From the IMG/VR virus record IMGVR_UViG_3300008255_000024, positions 1 through 45,460 of that record: DNA of 45,460 nucleotides; one strand, written 5' to 3'. A program made the position numbers and the translations under genes. The stretch is from a virus. Its lineage: Duplodnaviria; Caudoviricetes. This document shows positions 1,422 to 41,038 of this stretch, in pieces. Numbering within the stretch: position 1 is the first letter of the stretch; every line of letters begins with the position of its first letter. The notes under the pieces are model-generated. The model was not told the DNA's origin. It searched no databases and was given only the letters and a program-made list of their open reading frames with translations.

Positions 1422-1491
1422 GGGGGCGCAAGGTTATGTACTCAAGACTAATGTCGGTTGTACTACGTGGGTTCGATTCCCACCGCCTCCA
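1422..1491 (+). ncRNA. tmRNA-like tRNA-like domain lacking the mRNA-like domain
   Basis: Acceptor GGGGGCG/CGCCTCC with G3:U70 and A73; T-arm GTGGG-TTCGATT-CCCAC; stemless GG-containing D-loop; short hairpin with 4-nt loop instead of an anticodon arm. Confidence 0.7.
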
Positions 1492-1611
1492 CATAACGTC
1501 GCTTAGCCCGTTCCTCAGATGTTCGGTGTCTAGTACCTCTGCTAGCAATAGCATGTCCGGCGGTAGGAGAGCAGACGTGTTCTCAGTGGTGAATATCAGT
1601 AGCCACACTAT

Positions 1612-1909: not shown

Positions 1910-1977
1910 GGGTCTGACATTCGGAATGAGGAAGCTCTCCAAAAGCTTTCGACTCAGTTCGACTCTGAGCAGATTCG
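1910..1977 (+). tRNA. tRNA-Trp(CCA) with reduced D-arm
   Basis: Acceptor GGGTCTG/CAGATTC plus G73; AAGCT-CTCCAAA-AGCTT; T-arm CTCAG-TTCGACT-CTGAG; D-arm only CATT-CGG-AATG. Confidence 0.75.
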
Positions 1978-2101
1978 CAAACCACATCAAGAAGGATGTG
2001 GTCGCTCTTCCAGTTTATGTACTGGACTTGACTTCTTCGGACAGTCATGAAGCCTCATAGCATTGAGGCGGGGTTTAAGCTTATGGCTTATTTTATCTTC
2101 A

Positions 2102-4766: not shown

Positions 4767-5637
4767 GAATGTAAGCCCAGTATCTATTGAGGTCATTACA
4801 CGTACTGACCTAAAGCCAACAGTTAAGAACTCAAGAATCACCCATCCATTCATGGAGTCTCTCACAAAAGAGTATACAAAGGATGGTGAAGCGTTTATTG
4901 TGTTCCATATGTCAGAGGCATTCAGAAAGAAATTCGGTATCCAACCAACACTACGTGGCGCAGCGTTCAACGATGATAACTTCTACAGCGAGGCTTACTT
5001 CTGGGCAGATGAGAATACTAAGCGTAACAAGCACAACCAATTCATAGAGACTATGCTGCACGAAATCAGTCACCTTCTATTCCATAGGTCAGGAAAGAAA
5101 GATATTACTCATGATTGGCATGAGAGGGAGGGTACCATACGTGGCATATTTAAGACGCATGATTACCGCCAATACCAAGTCGGTATTCTACAGAAGATAT
5201 CGTCTTGGATAAAGAACAAGTACGGCTCGCCGAAGGTACAACCATTGGTAGAACGAAAGGCACTTAATGTCGTTAAAGAAATGCTGGCGCTAGGCCACGT
5301 TGTCCATGTCTTTGAAGGCTATCGTACGCCTGCTAGGCAAGACTATCTATACCAACAGGGTCGTACAAGACCTGGTGACATCGTAACTAATCTTCGCGGT
5401 GGTGAATCACTGCATAACTACGGAGTTGCTGTCGACATTGTGTTCGGTCCAGAGGGACACCCATCTTGGAACCCAAAGGAACCATGGCTACTATTGGGAA
5501 CAATAGGTAAGAAGCATGGCTTCGAGTGGGGAGGAGATTGGTCGGGGTGGAAAGACATGCCACACTTCGAGATGACTCTCGAGTACACAATAGATGATTT
5601 TAAGAGCAAGAGAGTAGACTATACAAAATTCCTATGA
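4669..5637 (+). CDS. Endolysin: N-terminal HExxH metallopeptidase-like domain plus C-terminal M15 peptidase
   Basis: MLHEISH; EGYRT..RQ..LY.QGRT, SLHNYGVAVD, EWGGDW, DMPHFE. Confidence 0.85.
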   Translation: MKLKLITTDPTLKSWQSLQSKLGLVRKTLETIKNVSPVSIEVITRTDLKPTVKNSRITHPFMESLTKEYTKDGEAFIVFHMSEAFRKKFGIQPTLRGAAFNDDNFYSEAYFWADENTKRNKHNQFIETMLHEISHLLFHRSGKKDITHDWHEREGTIRGIFKTHDYRQYQVGILQKISSWIKNKYGSPKVQPLVERKALNVVKEMLALGHVVHVFEGYRTPARQDYLYQQGRTRPGDIVTNLRGGESLHNYGVAVDIVFGPEGHPSWNPKEPWLLLGTIGKKHGFEWGGDWSGWKDMPHFEMTLEYTIDDFKSKRVDYTKFL

Positions 5638-7163
5638 GTAAGATTATAACAAAGTTTGACCCAGAGTTAGTTAAGCGTGCGGTTGATAGGATTGCAGACC
5701 CTATCGTTCAGACACTAACCCCCATGGGGAATAATGTTTTGTTTGAAAAGGAATTCCATTCCTTGATTACGAACGACGGCTCAACGATAGCTAAGCTCAT
5801 TGACTCTGAAGACGAAACCGAAGATGCTATCATCCAGATGGTGAAGTATGGCTCACTAGCCACCAACCAAGCTGCTGGAGATGGCACTAGTACCACTGTT
5901 CTTCTCACAAAGAAGCTGGTGGACATGGGTGTAGAGCGTATCAAGGCTGGCACAAAGCCTATGGCACTCAAGAAGGAGTACACTGACCTGAAGAACGCTA
6001 TCATCGAGGCCTCCCTTAAACATAAGCATGATGTATCAAAGGATGAGTGGTTTGATATCGCGATGATATCCTCAGGCGGTGATGACGTTCTTGCTGAGAA
6101 CGTTGTTGAGATTATAGACACGGCTGGCGTTGACGGCATGGTATTCCTTAACGAGTCAAAGACCGAGAACACTCGTATCATTAAGGATTCTGGTTACATG
6201 CTGGAGCAAACTATGTTTGACCCAGTACTTGGAAATGTGTCACAGGGTAGGGCTGACTACACTAAGCCGTATGTATTCGTAACGGACAAGAAACTCTACC
6301 ACATAGAAGAGTGTCGAGAGATTCTAGAGACAGCCTTTAAGGTGGGGGCGAAGGAGGTAGTGATTGTCGCCCGCGACTTTCTTGGGGAATCAGCTGGCTT
6401 CCTCATCTCTAACCATCTCGATGAGAAGGTACCACTTAAGGTGCTGATGATTAAGTACCCAACACCTGACAACAACCATGTTGGTCTCTATGACCTTGCT
6501 ACATACCTCGGTGGGCATGTCGTCACAGAGAAACGTGGTTCATTGAAAGGTAAACTAACTGCCGATGACTACGTTCTATCAGAAAGAGTCTACTCACACG
6601 GACCAAAGACAATCTTTGTAACTGAGAACAAGACAAATCCTGAGTTGTCAATGCTGATTCAGGAGGTTCGTTCAAAGAAAGAAGAGGACCCAACCGATGA
6701 CAGCCTTGCTAAACGACTAGCCTCGTTAACAGCAGGTACAGTTAACCTTGAGGTTGGAGCTGCTACAGGTCCTGAGTTACGAGAGTTAATCTTTAGATAT
6801 GAAGATGCGATTAATGCAACGCGTGCTGCGATTCGTAGCGGCTACGTTGTTGGTGGTGGCCTTACTCTCTTTAATGTTACGAGGGATTTGGGTGAACTAG
6901 GTAAAGAGTTTGGGCTTGCGTCTGTACAGCAGATTGCACTCAACTGTGGTGTTGACTTCTCAGTCAAGGACTACAGTGGTACGGTTGGCTACAATGCCAA
7001 GACAGACAGCTTCTCTGACCTAGAAGCAGATGGTGTCATTGAACCATACGATGTATTCAAGTACTCAGTAATCAATGCGTTTAGTATTGCAATTGCAATC
7101 TTAACATCAGGATTTATCATCACTAATAAAATAAAGAAAGACAATGGAAAATGCAACTGTTGA
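5634..7163 (+). CDS. groEL: Phage GroEL-like chaperonin
   Basis: TLTPMG, ITNDGSTIA, AGDGTSTT, EDAINATRAA, GYVVGGG, GYNA; 509 aa, no GGM tail. Confidence 0.93.
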   Translation: MSKIITKFDPELVKRAVDRIADPIVQTLTPMGNNVLFEKEFHSLITNDGSTIAKLIDSEDETEDAIIQMVKYGSLATNQAAGDGTSTTVLLTKKLVDMGVERIKAGTKPMALKKEYTDLKNAIIEASLKHKHDVSKDEWFDIAMISSGGDDVLAENVVEIIDTAGVDGMVFLNESKTENTRIIKDSGYMLEQTMFDPVLGNVSQGRADYTKPYVFVTDKKLYHIEECREILETAFKVGAKEVVIVARDFLGESAGFLISNHLDEKVPLKVLMIKYPTPDNNHVGLYDLATYLGGHVVTEKRGSLKGKLTADDYVLSERVYSHGPKTIFVTENKTNPELSMLIQEVRSKKEEDPTDDSLAKRLASLTAGTVNLEVGAATGPELRELIFRYEDAINATRAAIRSGYVVGGGLTLFNVTRDLGELGKEFGLASVQQIALNCGVDFSVKDYSGTVGYNAKTDSFSDLEADGVIEPYDVFKYSVINAFSIAIAILTSGFIITNKIKKDNGKCNC

Positions 7164-7410
7164 AGAGACTACTAATCTAGAGGCTGAGACACAGAAACGA
7201 ATCTCTGAACGTATCCAAGAAGTGCTTGAGGCTGAGGGTTATGCTCTACAGCCGTTCATCCAGTACTCTGAGTTCGGACTTGTGCCTCGTGTACGCTTAG
7301 TAGCCATTAAACAAAAAGATAATGATGGACAAACAGACAATCCAGCAGACTCTGGAGAGACTAAAGCAGAAGACACAGATACTCCAGTTGAACCAGCACA
7401 AGACGCTTAG
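7144..7410 (+). CDS. Hypothetical acidic protein, probable paralog of 7671..7844
   Basis: Between groEL and groES; motif I..(V/L)L...GY.L.P. Confidence 0.65.
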   Translation: MENATVEETTNLEAETQKRISERIQEVLEAEGYALQPFIQYSEFGLVPRVRLVAIKQKDNDGQTDNPADSGETKAEDTDTPVEPAQDA

Positions 7411-7645
7411 TGACTACGTAATAGTTGTCCCTGTTGATATCCAAGAGCCAGGAGTTACTAGTCGTGCCTCACAGTTTGAGGACCGACCAGAGATTGGACT
7501 TGTCGTCGGAGCTGGACCACTAGCTGAAGGTGTCGAGATAGGTAATGTTGTCTTCTTTGGGCGGTACTCACACGTACAACTCACACACGATGATGTCATC
7601 TATCTAATCATGAGGCTAGAAGATATATACTGCATAGCTGAATAG
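7322..7645 (+). CDS. groES: GroES-like co-chaperonin
   Basis: DYVIV, GLVVGAGP, VEIGNVVFFGRYS, YLIMRLEDIYC match the Cpn10 pattern. Confidence 0.88.
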   Translation: MMDKQTIQQTLERLKQKTQILQLNQHKTLSDYVIVVPVDIQEPGVTSRASQFEDRPEIGLVVGAGPLAEGVEIGNVVFFGRYSHVQLTHDDVIYLIMRLEDIYCIAE

Positions 7646-11362: not shown

Positions 11363-12439
11363 TTAATAAATTTGACCATTGCTTCCGTATAGAATTTCTC
11401 CTATTGTTGCACCACCCCATGTGTTGAACGACTTACCAACAGGGAGTCTAGTCTTAGCTGGTGTCGTAGTAGTTGGCTTATTGAGACTATCCATGAATCC
11501 TTTGTCTGAGATAACACCATTGTAGGCGCCCATAACAATCGTAGCTAAGTCTTCCATGTTACCTTCGAACCCTATCTGTGTACCCACAGCAGCTAGGTAC
11601 TCAGTACTTGTTATCTGTTCTTTGGTTAGTGTACGAGCAGCCAGTTTATTCTTGATATCCTGAGCAATCATTGCCTGTGTATTCGTGGAAGCCTTTTGAG
11701 TCTCAAGCTCCTTCTTCTGTAGACTGTACTGTGCCCAGCTAATCTGGTTACGCTCACGCTCAAGCTCTAGTTGTTGCGTCTTTAGGTCCATATCCTTTAG
11801 ACTGAGCCCATAGTCCTTCTCGAACTGGTAGTTAGACTGTAGTAGCCCCAACGCAAACTGTTTCTTATTCTCTTCCTGTGATGACCAGAACTGTTCATTC
11901 TGCTGAGCCTGACCAATAGCCTCTTGCTGAAGATTAGCCACACCTATTAGATTAGAATAGAAGGTTTCTTCTTGTTGTTGAAGGAACTCTAGCTTCTTAA
12001 TACGAAGACCTGCCATAGCTGCTGCTGTGGTAGCATCGTTCGTCATCATTGCCTCCTGATATCGAGCGTCTAGGTCTCTAATAGACTTAGTTGTGGTTTC
12101 AGTGAGCTCACGAAGCCCTGCAACCTGTGTAGCATAGCCTGTCCTGCCTTCTAAGGCTTCGGTGAACTGAGCCCCTGCCCTATCTTCAGCATAAGACACC
12201 TCTCTCGAACGTTCTGACTGAAGCCGTGCTGCGGTCGCTGCTCCTGCTGACTGAGTGTCCTTCATCGCGGCATCAATTGAGTTCTGAAGCTCTGAAGAAG
12301 CTGAAGTTGAGATGCCCTTACTCTGTTCTGTTAGCCGTGCCGTAAGAATATCAACCAATGGATTCGATTGAACTTCTTTTCCACCCGTTGCTGGGCTCTG
12401 TGAGGCATAAGCAGCTAATACTTTTTGAAAATCATCCAT
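11363..12439 (-). CDS. Internal virion/ejection protein (putative)
   Basis: Q/A/E-rich coiled-coil; position. Confidence 0.55.
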   Translation of the reverse strand: MDDFQKVLAAYASQSPATGGKEVQSNPLVDILTARLTEQSKGISTSASSELQNSIDAAMKDTQSAGAATAARLQSERSREVSYAEDRAGAQFTEALEGRTGYATQVAGLRELTETTTKSIRDLDARYQEAMMTNDATTAAAMAGLRIKKLEFLQQQEETFYSNLIGVANLQQEAIGQAQQNEQFWSSQEENKKQFALGLLQSNYQFEKDYGLSLKDMDLKTQQLELERERNQISWAQYSLQKKELETQKASTNTQAMIAQDIKNKLAARTLTKEQITSTEYLAAVGTQIGFEGNMEDLATIVMGAYNGVISDKGFMDSLNKPTTTTPAKTRLPVGKSFNTWGGATIGEILYGSNGQIY

Positions 12440-12441
12440 GT

Positions 12442-13620
12442 TTATCTACGCTTAATTATTCTACGATTACGGAGGTTAATACCTGCCACTTTAAAGTTTG
12501 AACTACCCATATCTCTCTCTCCAGAGAAGTTCTTACGGTATCGTTCTAGTGATTTGTTGGCCTCTGAGTCCTCTGACCTCGCATTCTGAATCAGCTGTAG
12601 ACTTCGGAACAGGATTCCAGCAGCCTTGTGAGCTACCGCAAACTTGTACTGTGGATATCGGTCTGAAAAGAACGGGACATCTGTTACTGCTCCAAACTCT
12701 GTAATCTCTGTACCTGCTGTGTTGTTGCCCACTCGATAGAAGATATACTTGAAGGTAAGGTCTACTGGTTCTGCGATACGCATGTCTGATAGTTTAAAAC
12801 CATCTACTGCGGTCTTTGCTACATCATGGTTTATCAGCCACTCCCACTCTGTTAATGCTGTTATGTCTGGAGTCCCTACCATTGATAGGTCTCTCCATGC
12901 CACCTTAATTGTGTTAACACCCTCAGCTAGTGGATTACCATTGACATCCTGATTAACTACACCGAGGTAGTAGTCAGTAGCTAAGTCAGTACCAAACTTA
13001 ATTGAGACCGAGGTAACATCAGTGATGTCTGGTATCTCAACTTCGAAGATTAGTACACCTGTACCCTCGTACTGGGTTAGGTCGATTGCCTCGGTAGTGG
13101 TATCAAGACCAGTGGCTGTGACACCATCTGTGGTCATGTCAAATCGAATTGAATTCTTCTCTGCTGTTATATTCGAGGCATTGGTACCTGTATATGTGAG
13201 CCCATCATCCTCTGGGAGGTCGATTAAATCACGGTGGGCGGCATCGCCAGGAGGAATAATGATACCAAGATAACTATCCGCATTATATCGTTCAATGGCA
13301 TAAGCATGTCGGTTAGGATTCATTGTCGCCAGGTCTCTAGCTTCAATTCTTGTAAAGTCCCCCTGCCCAGCCTCCTCATTCTTGTATCTTAGTTGACCAG
13401 CTGTTAGTAGATACGGAGTCAGATTGTCCATCTTGTACCAAGTCACTGTTGGAAGGTACTCAATGTAAGACCTGTCGGTCATGTGTTCGTTGCCCAACTC
13501 TTCAAGTAACCATGAGGTTGCTTCGGTAAGGGCACCGTACCTATCACTGGCAGATATTCTGTCGTTAGACGAATCTCCAATGAAAGTATTTACGGATGTG
13601 ATTAAGTCACTTACTGTCAT
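12442..13620 (-). CDS. Head-tail adaptor/tail tubular A-like protein with inserted beta-rich domain (putative)
   Basis: Helical N- and C-termini typical of adaptors around an acidic beta-rich middle. Confidence 0.5.
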   Translation of the reverse strand: MTVSDLITSVNTFIGDSSNDRISASDRYGALTEATSWLLEELGNEHMTDRSYIEYLPTVTWYKMDNLTPYLLTAGQLRYKNEEAGQGDFTRIEARDLATMNPNRHAYAIERYNADSYLGIIIPPGDAAHRDLIDLPEDDGLTYTGTNASNITAEKNSIRFDMTTDGVTATGLDTTTEAIDLTQYEGTGVLIFEVEIPDITDVTSVSIKFGTDLATDYYLGVVNQDVNGNPLAEGVNTIKVAWRDLSMVGTPDITALTEWEWLINHDVAKTAVDGFKLSDMRIAEPVDLTFKYIFYRVGNNTAGTEITEFGAVTDVPFFSDRYPQYKFAVAHKAAGILFRSLQLIQNARSEDSEANKSLERYRKNFSGERDMGSSNFKVAGINLRNRRIIKRR

Positions 13621-25110: not shown

Positions 25111-25743
25111 CTATTCAATACCGAGAGCATTGAATGCTTCTCCGTACTTACCTTTCAGTTTATTAAACTTTTCCTTTTCCATCTTTGCCATCTCCAGAAC
25201 CTTTTCAGTTTCCTGAGAAGTCTTGCCATCATTGGTTGGTGGTGTCTGGCCTGTGCGGGGTGTCCCGTCATAGCCTGCTCCAGTTTCTCCATTCGGCGTG
25301 AAGTTGAGAAATCGGTATGCTTCCTCCAATCGTTGACGTGCTTGTTCTTTTGTTGAGACGTCGGCAAAGTTGAATCGTGATAGGTTATCCTTAAACTTCC
25401 CAAACACTAGTCCAACTTGGTCAGCTTGAAACTCTGGCTTGCTTGTCTTGAACTCAGCGATTGCTGATTCCAGTTCTTGCTTGCGTCGTTCCGCTTCCTT
25501 CTGGCTTAGGGCTTGTTCGATAAGGGTATTAACATCGAGTTCACCGTTATTAAGATTTGCTTTTGAAAGAGCTTCGTTCTTCTTGATGCGTTCATCCTTG
25601 AGTTCCTCTACTACTTTAGTGAGGTCCTGTTTAGATTTCTCCACAAGACTATTGGCTACTTGAGCCGCTGCCTCCGCTTCGGCCACACGCTTCTTCGTGG
25701 CTTCAAGCTCTTCCTTTAAAGCGATAATTTCCTCTTCAGTCAT
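25111..25743 (-). CDS. Capsid scaffolding protein (putative)
   Basis: Acidic coiled-coil upstream of capsid genes, with own promoter. Confidence 0.7.
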   Translation of the reverse strand: MTEEEIIALKEELEATKKRVAEAEAAAQVANSLVEKSKQDLTKVVEELKDERIKKNEALSKANLNNGELDVNTLIEQALSQKEAERRKQELESAIAEFKTSKPEFQADQVGLVFGKFKDNLSRFNFADVSTKEQARQRLEEAYRFLNFTPNGETGAGYDGTPRTGQTPPTNDGKTSQETEKVLEMAKMEKEKFNKLKGKYGEAFNALGIE

Positions 25744-25749
25744 TTGTAT

Positions 25750-25965
25750 AACTACCTCGCCCCCTTAATTTTAATACACTTTATAACGGAGCAATGCCTC
25801 CGACAGGTCGAGTCCTGCTTGGCGAGTCTGCCTTTTGGGCAAGGTAGGATGCAATGTAATGTGAGGGACGCACAGTTTTACTTCGCACCCTACCCCACCC
25901 ATAAGATGGGGCGCTACTGTTCATAGCATCGTTCTTTCGAACTGTAATACCGAGGGCCGTATTAC
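25750..25965 (-). promoter_or_regulatory. Structured 5' leader of the scaffold-capsid transcript
   Basis: Minus-strand hairpins GTAATAC/GTATTAC, GTTC-GAAA-GAAC, GGTAGGGTGC/GCATCCTACC; CTCGCC can pair with GGCGAG at the RBS. Confidence 0.6.
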
Positions 25966-25971
25966 GGCGTA

Positions 25972-26000
25972 ATTATAACATACCTCGTTTATTTTGTCAA
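25972..26000 (-). promoter_or_regulatory. Sigma70-type promoter (capsid operon)
   Basis: TTGACA-17 nt-TATAAT with TG extension. Confidence 0.9.
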
Positions 26001-26009
26001 GAGGGTAGA

Positions 26010-26993
26010 CTAGAATAAGTCTTCTCCTGATACGCTCTGACTTCTTTTGTTGTAGTTGATTGACCGCTTGTGGAAGAAGTCTACATGCTTAGTGGCGATA
26101 ACTTCATTATCAAACCATTCTGTCTTGTGTAGCATTGCTTCGTTTGTTTCAAAGATTCTCTTCAGCCCAACAGAGGCTAGAGAGTTATTGAGGCGGTGTT
26201 TGACGAACTCATAGACCTGTTCCTTTGGTAGAAAGTCTAGCTCTCCTGCCTCGAATATCCAGTCTATCAATTCCTTCTCAACCTTATATGTCTCCTCACA
26301 GAACTTGTATATCCTCTCCTTCCATTCTTCAGTGAACCAGCCTGGGTTCTCTTTCTGAATAATGTTGATTAGGTCGATACCAAACATACCGTGGATATTT
26401 TCTTCTTTTGAGGTTGCCTCTACTGCATTACTCAGTCCCTTGAAAATGTTCTTATGCTTATTGAAAGCCATCATTATCAAGAACTGAGAGAAGAGTGATA
26501 CGTGCTCCACAAAGAGTGCGAATAGAAGGACTGATTGTGCGTACTGACTGTTATCTTCTGTCCGTGACATCTCAGCTACTGAGCTAAGGTATTCGTATCT
26601 ATCTCGTAATACAGGTACTTCCATTATCTTTTCGAACTCTTTATTGAGCCCGAGTAGCTCTAGCAGGTGTGAGTATGCATCGGTGTGACGCACCTCAGAC
26701 TCTGCGAATGTTGCACCTACGGCACCAATCTCTGGCTTTGGCATCTTCTTGTAGATGTCACCCCAGAATGTTTTCACCTGTACCTCTATCTGTGCGATAG
26801 CTAGCATAGCATTCTTCACTGCATTGCGCTCAGCATCCGTAACATTAATCTTAAAGTCTTGGATGTCAGAGGTAAAGTTGAATTCGGTATGTATCCAGTA
26901 TGAGTGTCTTACAGCGTCTACATAAGAGTAGAGCTCTGGGTATTCATATGGTTTAAGATTGGTTCGTTTAGTGAATAGTGAACGCTTCTTCAT
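26010..26993 (-). CDS. nrdB: Ribonucleotide reductase beta subunit, class Id (NrdBi)-like
   Basis: KPYEYP, W.HTE.NF..D.QDF, AIAQIEVQVK (Glu first ligand plus Lys), EVRH..AY, VEHVSLFSQF, EENIH, DFFHKR..NY; start at ATG26993 via TAATG coupling. Confidence 0.93.
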   Translation of the reverse strand: MKKRSLFTKRTNLKPYEYPELYSYVDAVRHSYWIHTEFNFTSDIQDFKINVTDAERNAVKNAMLAIAQIEVQVKTFWGDIYKKMPKPEIGAVGATFAESEVRHTDAYSHLLELLGLNKEFEKIMEVPVLRDRYEYLSSVAEMSRTEDNSQYAQSVLLFALFVEHVSLFSQFLIMMAFNKHKNIFKGLSNAVEATSKEENIHGMFGIDLINIIQKENPGWFTEEWKERIYKFCEETYKVEKELIDWIFEAGELDFLPKEQVYEFVKHRLNNSLASVGLKRIFETNEAMLHKTEWFDNEVIATKHVDFFHKRSINYNKRSQSVSGEDLF

Positions 26994-27121
26994 TATCCCT
27001 CGCAAGATGTGCAAGCACTGTCTCCTGGGGCAACGTGAATGCGTGGTTTAATTGTTGGACCGTCTTCTAGTTCAGGTAGTTCAAAATCAATTTCCTTTTC
27101 GTCCTGATGTCTTTCGCTCAT
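26993..27121 (-). CDS. 42-aa acidic mini-protein ending CTSCEG, resembling an RNR alpha C-terminal redox tail
   Basis: MSERHQDEKEIDFELPELEDGPTIKPRIHVAPGDSACTSCEG*; stop overlaps nrdB start. Confidence 0.75.
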   Translation of the reverse strand: MSERHQDEKEIDFELPELEDGPTIKPRIHVAPGDSACTSCEG

Positions 27122-31836: not shown

Positions 31837-31865
31837 ATTATACCATACTATGTAAAATTTGTCAA
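31837..31865 (-). promoter_or_regulatory. Sigma70-type promoter (terminase operon), nearly leaderless
   Basis: TTGACA-17 nt-TATAAT with TG; ATG only 11 nt beyond the -10. Confidence 0.9.
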
Positions 31866-31939
31866 GTACTCCTTGTACGACCGAGTGAAACTCTCAAGGG
31901 GCCATGCCCCGAATTCGTCCCTTGGACTCAAGTACCACT

Positions 31940-32040
31940 GGTACGATTGCCCTATAAGCCTCTAAAATCCTGAAGATGACCTAAGTATCATGTTCTGAAT
32001 TTAAAACGCTCTACGGGCATTTTAGGGGCATTTAAAGCGA
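31940..32040. repeat. Dispersed phased-tract element, copy B
   Basis: GAAGATGA..TAAGTATCA...AATTTAA aligns ungapped with copy C; reverse strand aligns with copy A. Confidence 0.65.
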
Positions 32041-32182
32041 TGTCTATTCCTACACACTATTGGTTTTTTAGATATCTGAAGTGTTATGGCATACATCTCA
32101 GATTCTTTAAAATTATATCTCGCTCTTGAGGGGTAATTATACCTACCCACACACTGATTCCCCCCTATACCCCACCCCTATC

Positions 32183-32551
32183 ATTACATCATGAATATCG
32201 AATCCTGTCAAGACTGTACAAATTCCATCGGTATTGTATAAACTATGCCATTATTATTCTTTTATGTAAAGGCTGGGGGGGTGGTATATACTTTAGGGAG
32301 ACTTTAGGGATACTTTACTTTATGGTATACTTGTGGCATAAGTACAATTATTTGACTACTTCGATATACTGTGGTATGACTAGCTATCCCCATTGACTTC
32401 TATAGTGCTATCCTGTATGCTCTCTAGTAGGTAGAAAGGCATGACCGCCAAGACTACCAGTTCATTACAATAACAGTAACTATAATATGAAACCATCACT
32501 ACTTATGGCTATGCTATCAGACTTGCTTTATCTTGAGCAATCTGATATGCT
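32183..32551. promoter_or_regulatory. Cluster of divergent/tandem sigma70-like promoters at the strand switch
   Basis: Minus TTGACA-17-TGTAAT (32183-32211); plus TTGACT-17-TATGAC (32352-32380), TTGACT-17-TATGCT (32393-32421), TTGCTT-17-TATGCT (32523-32551). Confidence 0.65.
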
Positions 32552-32617
32552 AGCTATGACCGACACGGTGGTACAATCTTACAAGGAAATGGGAAACTAT
32601 GACCGCGTGAGGATACT

Positions 32618-33602
32618 ACGTGTTGTTAGTATATAGTGTGCAGCTAGGATATACCATAACCGCCTAAACAGGTGAGAATGGTATGCCCTGTGGTGTACAC
32701 TATGACCGCATAAAGGCGGTAAAGTTACACCACAAGATTACCGACTTGCATAGTTGCAAAATAATCGCAAGTATGATAATCTTAAAGAGTCAAGGGAAAG
32801 AGAGTCTCGGAACCTTGCAACAGTACATTTACAATCAAAGGTGAGTATAGGTGAAAACCTACACTGACCGCCTGTTGTGACTAACAGGTTTATATAAAAG
32901 ACTTTTACGCAATCTCTGAAAACTTGCATGTGCGCTGGATAGCCAAAACATGCAACGGAACCTAGCAAGTAAGTTATAAAAGCCCTGTACCCTGTTGCAA
33001 GTAGTATCTGATACTATAAGCACGTACGAAGTGGGATATATAGCAATCCTTGTGAGCATACGTGAGTGAATGTAAAAGTGACTATATATAGTTTGATTGT
33101 CATATATGAGCCTTACAACTCGAAAAACTGTAATAGTGTGTACGTGTCGATATATAAAACTGATTATACTTTGAAAGGGTACAATAGTCAGAAAAAGACC
33201 AACGACACACGAATAGTAGCACGTTGTCATAACATACATTGACAATCGTTCCAGAACTACAATGCCCGCCAGCTATACTATAGGGTAATGCATACATTAT
33301 CACGTAAAGCAGCGACAAAGTAGGTAAGAATAAAGCGTATACCGTAACACGTATATTGTCAGTAGCTTATAGGGCTTGCGAATACCGCAAGAAGTAACGT
33401 AGAATTGTATACAGTCACGATACTCTGTGAGTGTATGATATAATCATACTGTGACATAACGACAATGTGCTACAATGTAACATCTCACGCTAGTACACTT
33501 GTAAAGTGTAGCATGTCATATAAACTACAGGTGATGCCGTGAAAAGTAACATACTGTATACATGCGAGAAAGTAAGTAGAAAACGTGAGATAATAACAAC
33601 GT
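32618..33602 (+). ncRNA. Candidate ~1-kb ornate structured ncRNA
   Basis: No plus-strand ORF >=60 aa; about 20 nested helices; possible closure GTTGTTA(32622)/TAACAAC(33594); downstream of promoter cluster. Confidence 0.65.
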
Positions 33603-33637
33603 CAGATTACCGTTAGTGCCTTTGTGCCTTGGTAGTC

Positions 33638-33770
33638 TGCACGTTATGGCAAGTGACCCGCTACAGGGTAAGTAGCAATACAGAAACATATATACACAAC
33701 TCCTTTAATTAAAGAACTGTTATTGTTTGAATTGATTCTATTTGAATTCTATCGCTTGTCATAACGTGCA
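33638..33770 (+). ncRNA. Long-stem structured RNA candidate
   Basis: 19-bp stem TGCACGTTATGGCAAGTGA/TCGCTTGTCATAACGTGCA with two G-U pairs. Confidence 0.6.
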
Positions 33771-33860
33771 TAAGCACGTGTATATTATAAGTTATCATCG
33801 AAATATGCTAGAGTTATCGCTAGTATTAACAGCAGTATTATTCTTGAATTATTGTACACA

Positions 33861-33938
33861 ATGAAAAAAGGAAAAGATAACCGTAAATTCTACGGTAAGA
33901 TGTTGCGAATGATTAACGATAAAAGGCGTAAGCATTGA
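33861..33938 (+). CDS. Possible basic micropeptide (25 aa)
   Basis: MKKGKDNRKFYGKMLRMINDKRRKH*; A-rich start context. Confidence 0.3.
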   Translation: MKKGKDNRKFYGKMLRMINDKRRKH

Positions 33939-34579: not shown

Positions 34580-34885
34580 ATGAAAACAAAATCAATCATT
34601 GATAGGGCTTTTGATGGGGCTGGTTTTACTTATAAAGTATTAAGTAAACATAAGTCCACTTGTCCTTTCTGTGATTACCCACAGTGGGTGATTGAAGTAA
34701 GGAATAGTCATGAATGGTCTGATGGTGTAATTGAACATGATGTTATCAAACTACAGTTACATAATTTCATTGAGCTTGGTTATATAATCTCTATTAAGAG
34801 TACAAAACGAGCAGGTCTTTCCCTTGGTATGTTTAGAAAGTTAGAAAGGTTACAGACTAATTTAATTAACGAATTTAACAAATGA
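34580..34885 (+). CDS. Hypothetical protein (CPFC motif)
   Basis: 101 aa; ATGA coupling to GGCT gene. Confidence 0.65.
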   Translation: MKTKSIIDRAFDGAGFTYKVLSKHKSTCPFCDYPQWVIEVRNSHEWSDGVIEHDVIKLQLHNFIELGYIISIKSTKRAGLSLGMFRKLERLQTNLINEFNK

Positions 34886-35235
34886 CAACAATTGCAGTAT
34901 ACGGTAGTCTAAAGAAAGGAAAGTATAATCACAGTATACTTGAAGACCAGAAGTTTGTAGGTACGACAACAGTAAAAGGAACTCTGTATAGAGTGAGTTC
35001 ATATCCTGCTCTTGTAGAAGGAGGGGATACAGAGTATCCATCTGAGGTGTATGAAGTAGAGGATGAGATGTATGAGCGTATCAAGAGAATGGAACTAGGT
35101 GCTGGGTATAAAGAAGTAGAGGTTGCTTGCAATATACTAGAAACACTTGAGGTTGTGCCCGCCATAGTGTACTACGCAGATACTCTACTAGCAGAGAGGT
35201 GTAAGGAACATTACGAAGTGATTAGTGAGTACTAA
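34882..35235 (+). CDS. Gamma-glutamylcyclotransferase (AIG2-like)
   Basis: AVYGSLKKG..NH, YPALV, EVYEV, ME...GY. Confidence 0.9.
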   Translation: MTTIAVYGSLKKGKYNHSILEDQKFVGTTTVKGTLYRVSSYPALVEGGDTEYPSEVYEVEDEMYERIKRMELGAGYKEVEVACNILETLEVVPAIVYYADTLLAERCKEHYEVISEY

Positions 35236-35303
35236 TTACAGGAATGTGTGCGCCTTAAAGACTACAGTAATATGAATTAATTACAATTTATTAGTTAGTA
35301 GGT

Positions 35304-35548
35304 ATGTACCTACTGAACAGGGTTTCGTGCAAACACTAGGATATGTAGAGAGGAAAGTGCAACATACCAAGTACCTCGTTGCTAAGGCCGTGATTATATT
35401 CAGTAATCGGCGGTAATGCTATACGACTGTCAGGAGTTGAGCGCTGGAATCATGTGTAGCGTCATTGCTCTTAACGATTTTTTACTGACGGGAGTGATGA
35501 AAAGAACCTATATATTCGGGGTGTCGGAACCCTATTTAGTTGGTGCAT
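35304..35548 (+). ncRNA. Long-stem multibranch structured RNA candidate
   Basis: ~24-bp imperfect closing stem (35304-35327/35525-35548) with G-U pairs; possible pseudoknot GAGG..GCAAC..CCTC-GTTGC. Confidence 0.6.
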
Positions 35549-35576
35549 TCCACATTATCATTTAATCCTAGTCATT

Positions 35577-36749
35577 ATGACTATACAACAGGTTAAAAAA
35601 TTAATCAATAAGTGCGGGGAAGTAGTATCAGTACACTATGGTTGGAACATAGCAAAGTTTCGAAAGGATGAAATCACCATTAACGGTGATGTCCTGAAAT
35701 GTGGTTACTATGAAATTAACAGCAGGGATATCAGAGCTATTGCGAATGGAGCCTATGTGTCAGTAGCTGCAGCGGTAACATTTGGTAGTGACCCCGAGCT
35801 ATTCTTTGTAAAGAATGGGCAGATTGTACCAAGTAACGATGTTATCACAACAGATGGTGGTGATGTTACACGTGATGGTTTCCAACTTGAACTAAATCCG
35901 CAAGGACATACATGTCGTGAGATAGCAGGCTCGAACATAGCAAGGGCTTTATTTAGAGCTGAAGAGATAGCTTCGAACATCGGTGCAGAACTTTCTATTG
36001 CTGTTGGTGTTACTGTCGGTGATGAGGCATGGAAGAAATCTACATTTGAAACAAGACGTTTTGGATGTAACCCAACATCCAATGTGTATCAAAAGATTAA
36101 CCGACTAGCTACTGGTATGCGAATCAGATTCCGTTCTGGTGCTGGGCACATCCATATTGGTGGGCTTAATGCTCATGAGAAGGCTGACTTGCCTACGATT
36201 GTCAAGCTTATGGATATTATTGGTGGCAACACAGCAGTACTCATTGACCGAGACGAGAATAACGCACATCGACGCAAGTACTATGGTAGGGCAGGAGAAT
36301 ACCGACCGAAACAATACGGTCTAGAGTATCGTGTGTTCAGTAACTTCTGGTTGAGACATTATGTACTATGGTCGATGGCTTCTGGCTTGCTACGTAATGC
36401 AGTTGGTATATATCGAGCAGGGCTAGCTGATGATTTAATCAAGCGATTCGATATGGTGAAGGTACGTGAAGCAATTAACACCAATGATAAGGCGTTAGCA
36501 ATGGAGAACTTTCTTATCTATAAGAAGTTTCTGGAAGATAAGAACATCTTTACAGGTAGTGGAATAGATATTGGTAACGTGGATTTATTCCTTGCATGGG
36601 CAAATAAGAAAGACCCAATTGCTGAGCTGGCACCAACTCTGAAGAGCACCTTCGATTCATGGGAAGAGAAATTACACTACGGTGCTAATGGATTTGAGAA
36701 GTTTCTTGACCACTCAGCCCTTGACGAGTTAGACCATTGCAATGGATGA
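35577..36749 (+). CDS. phiEco32-like COOH-NH2 ligase type 2
   Basis: FGSDPELF, DGFQLELNP, FGCNP, RSGAGHIHIG, RRKYYGRAGEYRPK.YGLEYRVFSNFW. Confidence 0.9.
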   Translation: MTIQQVKKLINKCGEVVSVHYGWNIAKFRKDEITINGDVLKCGYYEINSRDIRAIANGAYVSVAAAVTFGSDPELFFVKNGQIVPSNDVITTDGGDVTRDGFQLELNPQGHTCREIAGSNIARALFRAEEIASNIGAELSIAVGVTVGDEAWKKSTFETRRFGCNPTSNVYQKINRLATGMRIRFRSGAGHIHIGGLNAHEKADLPTIVKLMDIIGGNTAVLIDRDENNAHRRKYYGRAGEYRPKQYGLEYRVFSNFWLRHYVLWSMASGLLRNAVGIYRAGLADDLIKRFDMVKVREAINTNDKALAMENFLIYKKFLEDKNIFTGSGIDIGNVDLFLAWANKKDPIAELAPTLKSTFDSWEEKLHYGANGFEKFLDHSALDELDHCNG

Positions 36750-36802
36750 TCTTGCAATGGATGATTACGATGAAGAACTTTACTAGCAATTAAGGAAGTA
36801 TA

Positions 36803-37816
36803 ATGATTACATCTAATAGACGCTTTGGTATTGAGATAGAATTTGTAGCGCCGTCTGCTACTGCTCTTGATAAAATCCGTGGTCGGTTGAATGTAGTTGA
36901 TGATGGTTCTTTACGACCACTACTAAATGCAGGTGAGTATGTATCCGATGTTCTCCGAGGTGAAGACGGTGAGCGTTCAGTAGAGTACGCTTGCGAGATT
37001 CTTAAGAAACACGGAGCACACTCTAGTGACATAAAGACATCCGTACACGTTCATCTTGACGGAATGAAATCGCAACATGTGTTACGCTCTACAAAAGACT
37101 TCAGCAAAATTCCAACTAACCAAGCTGTGTATAGTTTATCTTCACGAATGAAGAAGACATTAAGTGAAGCACACTTTGCAGCTGCTGGCAGGGAAGGAAG
37201 ACTACAGTACCTAAATCCGAATGATAACTACGTGACGTCTTCGATTGGTAACGTACTCTACTTCTCATCTGTTACGCTTACTAGGACACCTTCGATTAAC
37301 TATACTTACTATTGGATTGAAACGCCAGACCGATTCAAATGGCTACGTAATGTGTTCTATTTCTACACACAGTTTTCTAGTGTGATGGATAGCATTGTGT
37401 CAAACTCCAGACGGTGTGGGAATATGTATTGTATTCCTCTTGCGAAGTCGTATGAACTATCAGAGATAGAGAAGTGTAAGAGTGTTGAAGACATTGCACA
37501 GGTGTGGTATAAGGGAAGAGGAATGGGTAATCACTACGATGACTCACGCTATCATAACGTAAACCTTCACTCATTCTTTGAGAGACTTGGTACTGTGGAG
37601 ATACGTTCACATGGCGGTACAATTGACCCACTAAAGATATTACTGTGGATTAAACTTCACCAAAAGATTGTTGATAAACTTGAGGATATGGAACTTGAGG
37701 ACATCAAGTTTGAGGGCAATCTATATAAGGAGTTTGTTGATTTCGTAGAAGAACCAGTATTGCAGGCTTACGTGAAGAGATTACTATGTTACTATAGTAA
37801 CATAACAGTTAAATAA
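36803..37816 (+). CDS. Putative amidoligase (glutamine synthetase-like fold)
   Basis: RRFGIEIEF, DGSL, EYVS.VL, SVHVHLD, RYHNVNL, GTVEIRSHGGT. Confidence 0.88.
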   Translation: MITSNRRFGIEIEFVAPSATALDKIRGRLNVVDDGSLRPLLNAGEYVSDVLRGEDGERSVEYACEILKKHGAHSSDIKTSVHVHLDGMKSQHVLRSTKDFSKIPTNQAVYSLSSRMKKTLSEAHFAAAGREGRLQYLNPNDNYVTSSIGNVLYFSSVTLTRTPSINYTYYWIETPDRFKWLRNVFYFYTQFSSVMDSIVSNSRRCGNMYCIPLAKSYELSEIEKCKSVEDIAQVWYKGRGMGNHYDDSRYHNVNLHSFFERLGTVEIRSHGGTIDPLKILLWIKLHQKIVDKLEDMELEDIKFEGNLYKEFVDFVEEPVLQAYVKRLLCYYSNITVK

Positions 37817-37818
37817 TT

Positions 37819-39177
37819 ATGTGCGGACTAGCATTTGCTTTTTCAAAGAGGGGTCGTGGTGTAGGCAAGCAGGTCTACGAAATGTATAAGGCGCAGGAGT
37901 CTCGTGGAAAGGAAGGGTATGGATTCATCTCTATACAAGATGGTAAGTTAGTTGCTGTTGAGCGTGCTCAGAAAGAGGATGGTATTAAGAGTAAACTTCT
38001 GGCTGATAAGTCTGAGATTATTCTCTTTCACCACCGTATGCCGACAAGTACAAAGAATACAATAGGAACAACACATCCTATCTTTGTTTCTAATCCAGAG
38101 CTAGAGTATGATTACTACGTTGCTCACAATGGTGTGATTACTAATGATGATAATCTAAAAGCTATTCATGAGAATCTTGGGTATGTGTACACAACAGAGT
38201 TCACTGAACATATCGTTGCTAAGTATAAGAACGGAGTAACAGAGGAGCTAGACGCTGACCGCCCAGTCTTCAATGATAGTGAGTGTCTTGCTATTGAACT
38301 AGCACGATACATCGAAGGACTATCGAATAGCGTAGATACAAAGGGTAGCGCAGCTTTCTGGATAGTACAGCTTGAGAAGGCAAGCACCAAGGTATTAAAC
38401 ATCTTCTATGGCAAGAACAAAGGTCGTGACTTGAAGATTACACACAATAAGAAATGGTGGGGAGTATCGTCAGAGACAGGTACTGATATCGAGAGTATGA
38501 AACTCTACTCTTTTGACATGGGAGACAAGACTTTGTATGAACAGCCACTGAATATAGACGAATCATACAAGGTAGTAAAGGTTGGATACCAGACTACACG
38601 CTACGCATACGAGGACAACAGCTACGACCGCAGCGACGTGAAGTACGGAGCAGAGAAGCAGGCAGACATCCATGCTTATGACAGTCTTGCTAACGCATAC
38701 TACAGCATGAAGGAAGCTACTGATTCAGGAGTGCCACTTAGTGAGTTCACACGCACGATGTTGAACGGGTACTACTACTACGTTCCAACTAAGTTTATTG
38801 GTAAGGACTTCGCAGAGCGACAACTGTTCTCTGCGTGGCCGTTTAATAGCGTCATTGCACTACCTACCCCAAGTACTGTTAACGTTGATGAGAAAGCACA
38901 GTTCAGATTGGAGGAGCTTTGTAACCAGTATGCTGAGAAACAGTGCCAGCAAGAGAAGTACCAGTCTCTAAATGATAAAGGTGTGTTTACCACAGAGGCG
39001 TTTAAGAAACTGAACGACGCTATTGAGCTAGACTTGCAAGAGATAGAAGAAGAAATATCTACTCTCGGTATTGATGCAGAACAAGTCGACGAAGTAATGG
39101 ACATTGCCAAAGACTTAGCTGACTACAACTACTCATTTGATTCTTACAATGAGACAGAGGTTATCCAATTCTCTTAA
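37819..39177 (+). CDS. Class II (Ntn) glutamine amidotransferase with C-terminal extension
   Basis: N-terminal MCG, RG..GYG, HHRMPT, HP, AHNGVITN, DSE. Confidence 0.9.
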   Translation: MCGLAFAFSKRGRGVGKQVYEMYKAQESRGKEGYGFISIQDGKLVAVERAQKEDGIKSKLLADKSEIILFHHRMPTSTKNTIGTTHPIFVSNPELEYDYYVAHNGVITNDDNLKAIHENLGYVYTTEFTEHIVAKYKNGVTEELDADRPVFNDSECLAIELARYIEGLSNSVDTKGSAAFWIVQLEKASTKVLNIFYGKNKGRDLKITHNKKWWGVSSETGTDIESMKLYSFDMGDKTLYEQPLNIDESYKVVKVGYQTTRYAYEDNSYDRSDVKYGAEKQADIHAYDSLANAYYSMKEATDSGVPLSEFTRTMLNGYYYYVPTKFIGKDFAERQLFSAWPFNSVIALPTPSTVNVDEKAQFRLEELCNQYAEKQCQQEKYQSLNDKGVFTTEAFKKLNDAIELDLQEIEEEISTLGIDAEQVDEVMDIAKDLADYNYSFDSYNETEVIQFS

Positions 39178-39186
39178 TAAACTATC

Positions 39187-39516
39187 ATGACACCAGAACA
39201 ACTTGAAAGGCTAAGGAACGAAGCTAGAAGATTCACGGCTCCCCCTGTTTTTCATCGAGTTGGTACCTCAATGCTAACTGCGAACATAAACGCTGTATCC
39301 TTTGACGACGACCAAGATTTCTCTGAGGAGGAGTTAATAGACGATGAGCAGATTGCTCAGCTCATGAAGAGCAGGCACCTAACCAAGGCTGAGAGACATG
39401 CACTTCATAAACCTAAGTCTGATTGGATTGAGGGCAGACGAGGAGAGGAGTGTCGAGCAGCACATGAACTACGGGTAGACGATATTGTACCAGTATCATT
39501 AAGAGTTAAGAAGTAG
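39187..39516 (+). CDS. Hypothetical protein
   Basis: 109 aa, follows GATase. Confidence 0.6.
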   Translation: MTPEQLERLRNEARRFTAPPVFHRVGTSMLTANINAVSFDDDQDFSEEELIDDEQIAQLMKSRHLTKAERHALHKPKSDWIEGRRGEECRAAHELRVDDIVPVSLRVKK

Positions 39517-39574
39517 CATAACAACATACGTATGTCTAAGTCAACGCTGGTCGTTAGACCACCTTAAAAGAAAT

Positions 39575-39945
39575 AGTAGTCAGAGTGTGCCATAGGGTTG
39601 CACCATGAGTACGCCCCTTGTAGATACGACGAAACTCTATACCCTGTATCTCTTACGAGACTCAGATATAGTTTCGACAGAACGATTCGTTCTCTGCACA
39701 TACAGCCAAGGTCTTTCGCTACGTTTATTACAACGATTCACCCAGATTGACAAGATATTTTAAGTGCCTGTATGCAGTATAGGGTATTCCCTTAGTCTAC
39801 GTGGCACTGTGGATTGTTTACCACTGTCATCCTTTGCATACCATAGGTATTGCACGCTGGTTTCACCAGTCATAGGAGTCCTCCAACGATATGAGATTAT
39901 AGTGTAAACGTTGGCATGGTCTACGCCCCTCACACTCTGATTACT
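39575..39945 (-). ncRNA. ~370-nt structured RNA candidate transcribed opposite to the flanking genes
   Basis: 15-bp closing stem 39575-39589/39931-39945; minus-strand GTAA and GAAA loops; dedicated promoter at 39964-39992. Confidence 0.65.
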
Positions 39946-39963
39946 TCTAATCAAGTAACCCAC

Positions 39964-39992
39964 ATTATATCATACTACTTAATTTTTGTCAA
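39964..39992 (-). promoter_or_regulatory. Sigma70-type promoter driving the minus-strand RNA
   Basis: TTGACA-17 nt-TATAAT with TG extension. Confidence 0.88.
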
Positions 39993-40032
39993 GTCCCCAA
40001 GAATATGGCTATGAATAAGGTTATTATAACGC

Positions 40033-40061
40033 TTTACTTTTAGCATAGAGTATGATATACT
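40033..40061 (+). promoter_or_regulatory. Sigma70-like promoter (ATP-grasp/replication genes)
   Basis: TTTACT-17 nt-TATACT with TG extension. Confidence 0.7.
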
Positions 40062-40078
40062 ATAGGGAATAATAACAA

Positions 40079-40141
40079 ATGGCAGAACTTGCAGTTGTGT
40101 TAGTCCTCATTGGACTAATGGCAGTAATTTTAAAAGATTAA
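40079..40141 (+). CDS. 20-aa hydrophobic micropeptide
   Basis: MAELAVVLVLIGLMAVILKD*; first ORF after the promoter. Confidence 0.5.
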   Translation: MAELAVVLVLIGLMAVILKD

Positions 40142-40150
40142 ATAATCATT

Positions 40151-41038
40151 ATGACCTTTCGCATTTATCCATACAAAGTAGGTACTGCTTCAGTACAGAA
40201 ACTCAAGTCAGAACTTGATGCACTTATCATTAGAACAGAAAACTCACGCTATCGTTTTAGTCCAGAGCATATCATTATCAACTGGGGTAACTCACGTCGA
40301 CCATCGTGGATGACTGAAGAGATAGACGATTTTATATTAAACAAACCAGAAGCGGTAGCAGTAGCAGCCAACAAGCTAAGAACTCTACAGTTACTAACAG
40401 AAAGTGGGGTTCCAACCATACCATGGACTACGATGAAGAGTGATGCTGAGTTCTGGGCTAACACAGCAAATAAAGTATACGCCCGACATGTACTAGATGG
40501 GCATAGTGGGGAGGGGATTGAGGTAATACAAGCAAACGAGAATCTAGAGGCTGGGCGTATGCAGGACATTGCAAACGAGCTATACTCACTAGGAAAAGCT
40601 AGTTTAGCTGAGGCGGTTGAAGAACAGATAGAATTAACAAACGTAGAAGTACCTGACGCACCGTTGTACACACTAGGTGTAGAGAATCATGGTGAGTATC
40701 GAGTACATGTGTTTGATGGTGATGTAATCCTTTACCAGAAGAAGTCACGGCGAGTAGACGAGGATGGTGAGATTATTACAGCAGACGGAGAGGAAGCAGA
40801 TGTCCGCAACCTAGCTAGTAATTGGGTTTACCGAACAGGGAATCTTAATCGACTAGAACGTATAGAAGAACTGGCGCTCAATGCTGTAGCCTCTCTAGGT
40901 CTAGACTTCGGTGCAGTAGACATCATCATGGATGAGAACTTGGATGTCTTCGTGTTAGAAGTCAATACAGCCCCAGGTTTGGGCAATGAAGATAGTTTAG
41001 TAGCATATGTTGAGGCGTTTAATAGTTTGGTTAACTAA
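40151..41038 (+). CDS. ATP-grasp ligase (RimK/phiEco32-like)
   Basis: INWG, LNKPEAV..AANK, GHSGEGI, EYRVHVF, RN, LGLDFGAVDI, VLEVNTAPG. Confidence 0.92.
   Translation: MTFRIYPYKVGTASVQKLKSELDALIIRTENSRYRFSPEHIIINWGNSRRPSWMTEEIDDFILNKPEAVAVAANKLRTLQLLTESGVPTIPWTTMKSDAEFWANTANKVYARHVLDGHSGEGIEVIQANENLEAGRMQDIANELYSLGKASLAEAVEEQIELTNVEVPDAPLYTLGVENHGEYRVHVFDGDVILYQKKSRRVDEDGEIITADGEEADVRNLASNWVYRTGNLNRLERIEELALNAVASLGLDFGAVDIIMDENLDVFVLEVNTAPGLGNEDSLVAYVEAFNSLVN

Follow-up and report, generated by a model that had tools for sequence, protein, structure and literature searches.

A conserved structured phage RNA with two guide arms and a predicted target in the leader of its own head operon

What does a phage express from a perfect promoter that points into a gap with no credible open reading frame? 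This question is raised by positions 39,575 to 39,992 of the 45,460-base stretch of DNA analysed here (the window), which is a complete virus record with direct terminal repeats. Comparison with related phages indicates that the locus encodes a genuine structured RNA that has so far gone undescribed. It carries two equivalent guide arms, for which a specific target is predicted in the leader of the phage's own head operon.

The promoter (39964..39992, minus strand) is of the sigma-70 type and reads TTGACA-17-TATAAT with 12 of 12 positions matched and a TG, as a first-pass annotation of the window had claimed; it is kept at the same place in relatives, and exact TTGACA-N16-18-TATAAT sites number four in the window against 0.05 expected. 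The predicted RNA (39575..39957, minus strand) would measure about 370-380 nt, its start (~39957) being placed from the -10 box and its end from the closing stem and a U-rich tract. A 67-aa ORF overlaps this region, but its start codon (39963) lies upstream of the predicted transcription start, and the frame is broken in five homologs, by frameshifts in L040, L020 and L029 and by stops in L042 and L024. We therefore rejected a protein-coding gene, in agreement with the earlier reading of the gap as free of a credible ORF, and the locus appears to be a separate RNA gene with its own promoter and without a conserved ORF.

The slot that holds this RNA is flanked by a 109-aa ORF, which ends at 39516, and by an ATP-grasp gene (40151..41038, plus strand), which serves here as context only. 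Pfam searches of 18 window proteins returned a phage capsid, an SU10-type portal, a primase-helicase and a phiEco32-like cluster comprising GGCT, COOH-NH2 ligase, amidoligase, glutamine amidotransferase and, last, ATP-grasp. This cluster (34882-41038, plus strand) is interrupted by the slot, which also adjoins the primase-helicase operon, and no link between the cluster and the RNA was found. Divergent promoters occupy 39959-40066, driving the RNA leftward and the ATP-grasp operon rightward, with -10 regions that form an 18-nt inverted repeat, and similar paired promoters are present in several relatives. Elsewhere, about 2 kb (31870-33930) upstream of a promoter at 31865 lacks a credible long ORF and may hold a packaging site, an origin or further RNAs. 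From their translations, we take the ORFs at 5634-7645 (plus strand) to resemble GroEL/GroES and that at 26010-27014 (minus strand) to resemble the ribonucleotide reductase small subunit. At least half of the words sampled from the phage were present in seven public runs, all of them aquifer metagenomes from one year and possibly from one campaign; no RNA run was among those listed, which bears on expression in neither direction.

Homologous loci were collected by alignment of ATP-grasp relatives (8 viral and 25 metagenome loci, including duplicates and the window's own twin), and for 14 of those fetched we read the slot that follows the conserved promoter on the minus strand. An RNA of the same kind, here called type A, fills eight of the 14 slots, self included (L028, which is the twin, L040, L020, L024, L029, L042, L043 and L045, the last being a partial copy of the first 280 of 386 model positions); full copies are 52-74% identical and share their location as well as the promoter. 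Three slots hold, on the minus strand, another conserved element, type B (L021:4400-4820, L025:4390-4804 and L034:500-953). It has a duplicate of its own, CCGACUAGAAUA or CAGCCAGAAUA occurring twice and changing in concert, and its conserved CG(A/G)GGG can pair with the first loop of the head-operon leader described below. One slot holds a third element (L036:3936-4312, minus strand) with a strong fold, unrelated to types A and B and without an Rfam hit; those of L023 and L037 measure only about 85 nt. In G005, a genome 93% complete, the slot is empty. Searches farther afield were negative. Annotated phages yielded only seven promoter-sized matches of 31 nt and no RNA homolog, their capsid relatives being less than 34% identical; the 18 loci from a double-motif scan of viral contigs included no homolog; one exact core pattern matched 23 times in 185,579 prokaryote genomes, never extending past the pattern; two further patterns retrieved only known members from viral sequences; and a covariance model of the 5' domain found no match in 64 other loci or in 13 records, the latter mostly fragments and scanned without a positive control.

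Folding alone leaves the strand unsettled, since both strands fold better than shuffled sequences (z of -3.2 for minus and -4.0 for plus). The first-pass annotation had correctly cautioned that one closing-stem position (39579/39941) is A-C on the minus strand and G-U on the plus strand; across the homologs, however, helices read on the minus strand contain 31 G-U against 5 A-C cells, which settles the matter for minus. Covariation among the homologs, proposed as a check at the outset, likewise supports two pseudoknotted domains on that strand. In the 5' domain (8 sequences), 92.6% of cells are paired and 12 of 24 pairs show double changes (0 of 500 shuffles), pairing falling below 48% when the alignment is slid, and in the core (7 sequences), 97.5% of cells are paired and 10 of 23 pairs show double changes (covariation score, 0 of 500 shuffles), by controls that ignore relatedness and for helices picked by eye from the same sequences. 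In the 5' domain, P1 joins the strand AGUGUG (39931..39936, minus strand) to UACAC at 39906-39901, the conserved partner of its GUGUG, and the same strand could engage the target's CACAUU in trans. P2 (39914-39909 with 39888-39883) crosses P1 to form the 5' pseudoknot (39874..39914, minus strand), a region with a conserved UAAUCU loop and an invariant CUCCU (39878-39874) able to mask the first guide copy. There follow a covarying hairpin CUGG-UGAAA-CCAG (39857..39869, minus strand) and the conserved core (39694..39832, minus strand), which includes GGAUGACA/UGUCAAUC, the hairpin GUGG-UAAACAAU-CCAC and GUGCC/GGCAC; one of its four helices (CUGCAUA 39777-39771 with UGUGCAG 39700-39694, minus strand) crosses two others and makes a second pseudoknot.

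Two features that had been singled out in the single sequence fare less well among relatives. The 15-nt inverted repeat behind the annotated closing stem is present, its 3' arm (39575..39589, minus strand) pairing with 39945-39931 over 15 bp and being followed by AUUUCUUUU, but the stem is a peculiarity of this phage rather than a conserved structure, the duplex between the leader and tail of the RNA amounting to -27.7 kcal/mol here against -7.4 to -9.3 in six homologs. As for GNRA-type loops, there is one clear case (CUC-GUAA-GAG), in a peripheral and nonconserved hairpin, and the conserved loops are UGAAA and UAAACAAU.

The duplicated motif near both ends takes the form of an exact 9-nt direct repeat at 39610 and 39922, and it is conserved as a duplication, not as a sequence, which varies between phages. 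Such a 9-mer repeat arises in 402 of 2000 shuffles and is thus weak alone; it becomes credible only through concerted change in the homologs. The seven bases after GUGUG, here AGGGGCG (X1, 39924..39930, minus strand), recur near the 3' end (X2, 39612..39618, minus strand), each RNA carrying its own version (own-versus-other permutations, 2 of 5040), and this concerted evolution speaks for the two equivalent binding sites that had been suspected. Copies of a second repeat, Y (CCUAUGG; Y1 within a hairpin at 39841..39847 and Y2 at 39590..39596, both minus strand), at about positions 90 and 340, also change together (1 of 5040). By eye, the 3' end, which begins with X2, is a miniature of the 5' domain, with X, CUC(CU)AUG, GUGCAA(UA)C and Y. 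In seven RNAs, neither full X nor full Y has a consistent internal complement, and a C4/CI-type immunity RNA was rejected for want of such a complement of the duplicated motif within the transcript. For Y, no consistent partner emerged inside the RNA or in three genomes scanned; its best genome match here is antisense to groEL at 5971 and is not repeated in the other two. The phage tRNAs examined gave no support to the idea of X as a mimic of a tRNA acceptor strand.

Does the RNA belong to a known family? At the gathering level Rfam has nothing over the RNA or in 16 related loci, and at E<=10 there are only chance miRNA, snoRNA and lncRNA matches, so that the annotation as a stand-alone structured RNA of unknown family, with which the homologs agree, can be retained. 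The RNA resembles tmRNA and RNase P RNA in size (350-400 nt) and in its pseudoknots. We rejected tmRNA, given no Rfam RF00023 match at E<=10, no ARAGORN hit and no tRNA-like ends, the same tool finding a tRNA-like-domain remnant elsewhere in the window; RNase P RNA, with no Rfam match at E<=10 and no conserved P4-type helix in the alignment; group I and group II introns, with no Rfam match and an element that is intergenic and has its own promoter; and ROOL, GOLLD, OLE and raiA, with no Rfam match. The tmRNA remnant just mentioned (73 nt, 1422-1494, plus strand; Rfam tmRNA E 9.6e-12, below gathering) consists of the tRNA-like domain only, with G3-U70 and a T arm, the mRNA part being absent, and its 5' strand GGGGGCG differs from guide X by one base. 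Nearby, tRNA-Met and tRNA-Trp are called in atypical form, their acceptor stems being poorly paired (1612-1683 and 1910-1978, plus strand), and the related phage G002 has a mini tRNA-like hairpin of acceptor stem and T arm only (L149, about 12372-12444, minus strand). Our literature search found no description of the RNA; the catalogue PMC10690425, whose searched part gave neither the motifs of this RNA nor the record identifiers, may already contain a fragment of it.

What, then, could two guide arms bind? A search for targets of the repeated motif, as the first-pass annotation had advised, yielded a candidate partner 14 kb from the RNA gene, the leader of the scaffold/capsid operon. This head operon, with its scaffold gene at 25743 and capsid gene at 24547, has its own perfect sigma-70-type promoter (25972..26000, minus strand) and a structured leader of ~220 nt (25744..25965, minus strand), in which a first hairpin with a CCCUCG loop and a long hairpin are followed by a covarying junction before the scaffold start codon. 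Across 12 sequences this 3' junction of the leader is 100% paired, with double changes in 10 of 16 pairs; it contains ACUCGA and GCAUUG loops and AAGUGUAUU, the start codon sits in a GUCAU/AUGAC hairpin in most of the 12 phages, and an invariant AAGGGG stands before the closing strand, 16-21 nt from the start codon. Rfam holds no real match to the leader, which appears to be itself an undescribed conserved RNA element. Of the 3,813 helices of at least 9 bp that the RNA can form with the remainder of the genome, the best joins X1 to this leader, AGUGUGAGGGGCGUA pairing over 15 bp with UGCGUCCCUCACAUU (25858..25872, minus strand), and the predicted target thus comprises the apical loop CGUCCCU and the adjoining strand of the long hairpin, 115-129 nt upstream of the scaffold start. 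DNA contigs matched over short pieces only; one of them changes a guide-target U-G to C-G (39923), at a depth of 2 that is too thin to count.

The type A RNA and the leader are both available in three phages only (G000, G001 and G002, this phage among the three). When both X copies were compared with the phage's own genome, the leader ranked first in G000 (-42.7; mean -14.1, sd 5.1; 14,940 windows), G001 (-31.1; 6,313 windows; record 41% complete) and G002 (-39.6; 15,299 windows), ranks that measure strength and are not a blind test, because the X probes were chosen after by-eye matches in all three genomes. When the whole RNA was scanned in G001, the site came only fifth. The G002 site falls in the first hairpin instead of the long one and coincides with a contig end that bears a 99-bp inverted repeat. 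This apparent inverted terminal repeat (L148:1-99 and the last 99 of L150) falls exactly at the head-operon leader, the leader promoter being missing, and is probably an assembly artefact at a hairpin. Of 13 leaders, each of the three type A RNAs matched its own best, with equally good shuffled sets in 1, 2 and 0 of 200; the guide of L029, whose own leader was not among the 13, did no better than shuffles (69 of 200). Guide tails and loop tails change in step between phages (CGUA/UGCG, AAAGCG/UGUUUU and AACCGG/UUGGUU), the pairing with the own leader, variable tails included, reaching 13-16 bp. In the reverse test, in which a leader loop was compared with the genome, with a first-hairpin probe that was misplaced in G005 and not centred in G000, the slot RNA ranked 1, 2 and 1 in the type A phages (second in G001). 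Type B phages had been set as a test before being examined: in G003 the unrelated slot RNA ranked first against its own long-hairpin loop, and in G004 the slot RNA came only seventh and tenth against its own leader and pairs over 12 bp with the leader of G003. The loops are hypervariable between phages and predicted to be 93-100% unpaired in G000, G001, G002 and G003. All three type A phages, a small sample, thus appear to combine conserved seed complementarity to an accessible site with compensatory change. G005 keeps a CCCCU leader loop despite its empty slot, which suggests that the RNA is not essential in every member.

We consider the gene anatomy, the fold, the strand, the concerted guide copies and the stepwise guide-loop complementarity to be established at the level of sequence. 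Since the guide is complementary to the leader loop and co-changes with it between phages, the RNA very probably binds the head message in trans. We believe that this conserved, pseudoknotted RNA would most likely turn on head-gene translation, a composite reading that we hold about as readily as we doubt it, the direction of control being close to evenly balanced. Upon transcription from the minus-strand promoter at the slot, the guide would be weakly held in cis, AGGGG by CUCCU and GUGUG by UACAC. The target loop would nucleate on the guide and displace P1 by strand exchange, as suggested by the likeness of the RNA's own UACACU to the target's CACAUU, and the 5' arm would end up with a duplex of 13-16 bp, the 3' arm with one of 7-10 bp. 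With roughly equal chances for and against, the CCCU loop of the leader would otherwise pair with the invariant AAGGGG before the junction stem and start codon, and its capture by the RNA would free the ribosome-binding region. As the promoters of the RNA and of the head operon are both of the host-type consensus, head synthesis would lag until the RNA accumulates, making the RNA a timer, and the core would act as a stabilising or protein-binding scaffold that holds both arms. Activation is preferred on two grounds: the site is located far upstream within a structured leader, and its CCCU can pair with AAGGGG, a sequence mimicked by the guide. Such distant binding places in structured leaders are also used by activating sRNAs, for instance DsrA on rpoS. 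However, AAGGGG at 16-21 nt from the start codon is too distant for a textbook Shine-Dalgarno sequence, so that the direction of control is weakly based.

The same binding could instead repress or destabilise the head-operon message, for example through altered cleavage of the long hairpin, and so delay assembly or lower the burst. All of the pairing evidence fits this equally well, the empty slot in G005 suits a dispensable brake, and SviR of the satellite PLE lowers translation of an ICP1 gene beside the capsid operon (10.1101/2022.04.08.487710). We nevertheless regard repression as unlikely, if a serious contender, as the site lies more than 110 nt upstream of the start codon, off the ribosome-binding region, and there is no apparent way to lift the block late in infection. 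What counts against the favoured reading is the core, whose ~200 nt with many invariant bases, some of them unpaired, exceed the needs of an antisense RNA. It is tentatively conceivable, if rather unlikely, that the RNA is a two-armed, guide-programmed machine whose arms (X and hairpin Y) dock leader hairpins and whose core is catalytic or part of a multi-RNA complex, the slot being, within that same reading, an exchangeable promoter-slot cassette in which unrelated RNA folds are recruited to the same target. A related rival has the RNA as a ribozyme acting in trans, or as half of a machine made of two RNAs; its arms would dock one or two leader hairpins while the core cuts, joins or holds them, by substrate docking like that of the VS ribozyme or in a pRNA-like role in head assembly. 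The large core with its invariant unpaired bases and second pseudoknot, two equivalent arms that could join two substrates, and a leader with its own promoter and stable fold would all suit this rival, but three members match no ribozyme or RNase P model at E<=10 and a slot that can hold an unrelated RNA or nothing makes an essential packaging part unlikely; this rival seems improbable.

Cross-pairing between phages raises the further thought that the RNA acts against co-infecting relatives, guide and loop diverging in an arms race. The guide of L040 pairs over 15 bp with the leader of G001, the G005 loop pairs over 11 bp with L043 and 10 bp with L034, L025 pairs over 12 bp with G003 and not with its own leader, and the loops are hypervariable; yet all three type A phages, and G003 as well, match their own leader best, where a weapon would call for the reverse, and superinfection exclusion is accordingly quite improbable. 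The guides might also mimic Shine-Dalgarno sequences, as a sponge for the ribosome or 16S rRNA, with anti-Shine-Dalgarno leader loops whose complementarity is a by-product. AGGGG does look the part, and an AUG follows X2 by 7-8 nt in three of seven RNAs, but pairing extends into the variable tails, for a total of 13-16 bp that is specific to each phage's own leader, and the small ORF is not conserved, so that we consider mimicry very improbable. Most remote is a DNA hairpin at the leader as the target (an R-loop, primer or packaging site): the slot adjoins the primase-helicase operon and the G002 assembly breaks at the leader, but G-U pairs take part in the pairing, and the loops concerned lie on the transcribed strand downstream of a promoter.

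Binding of the head-operon leader, the reading we favour, would be of interest in several respects. A specific predicted partner makes function testable at once, with two short transcripts and with natural cognate and non-cognate pairs, and the family offers a naturally re-programmed RNA guide scaffold. If the timer model is true, a phage whose strong promoters are all of the host consensus type would time head synthesis by RNA alone. Moreover, one or more of the unrelated RNAs found in this slot also seem aimed at the leader, and control would then have converged on a single point.

Among known systems, the C4 immunity RNAs of P1/P7 and the CI RNA of P4 have short pairing segments that co-vary with the phage leader and define specificity groups. 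Their duplicated part is the target, which sits within the transcript itself; the RNA described here duplicates the guide instead, faces a target 14 kb off in a lytic head operon and is much larger. The pRNA of phi29 also has its own strong promoter, a link to head assembly and loops that co-vary between phages, but its loops pair mutually into a ring; in the present RNA X1 and X2 are identical and their complement belongs to a different RNA, and Rfam gives no match. ROOL and GOLLD are large, phage-encoded stand-alone RNAs with multiple pseudoknots, and many GOLLD RNAs exceed 800 nt (PMC12286853; see also PMC12990946). The RNA described here is shorter than GOLLD, has no Rfam match and is not beside a tRNA island, and while ROOL and GOLLD, which are marked by RNA-only homo-oligomeric cages, are structures without known function, it comes with a specific, co-varying predicted partner in trans. 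Like the trans-acting sRNAs of phages and satellites (SviR, VpdS, PreS and 24B_1, as covered in the review PMC12197685), it has a separate gene, a short seed and a distant mRNA target, and it differs from SviR-type sRNAs, as portrayed there, in its length of ~370 nt, two covarying pseudoknots and duplicated guide, as well as in a target in its own genome and in guide-target co-variation between phages. By analogy, then, this RNA appears to work like a trans-acting phage sRNA and to be built like the ornate RNAs of phages.
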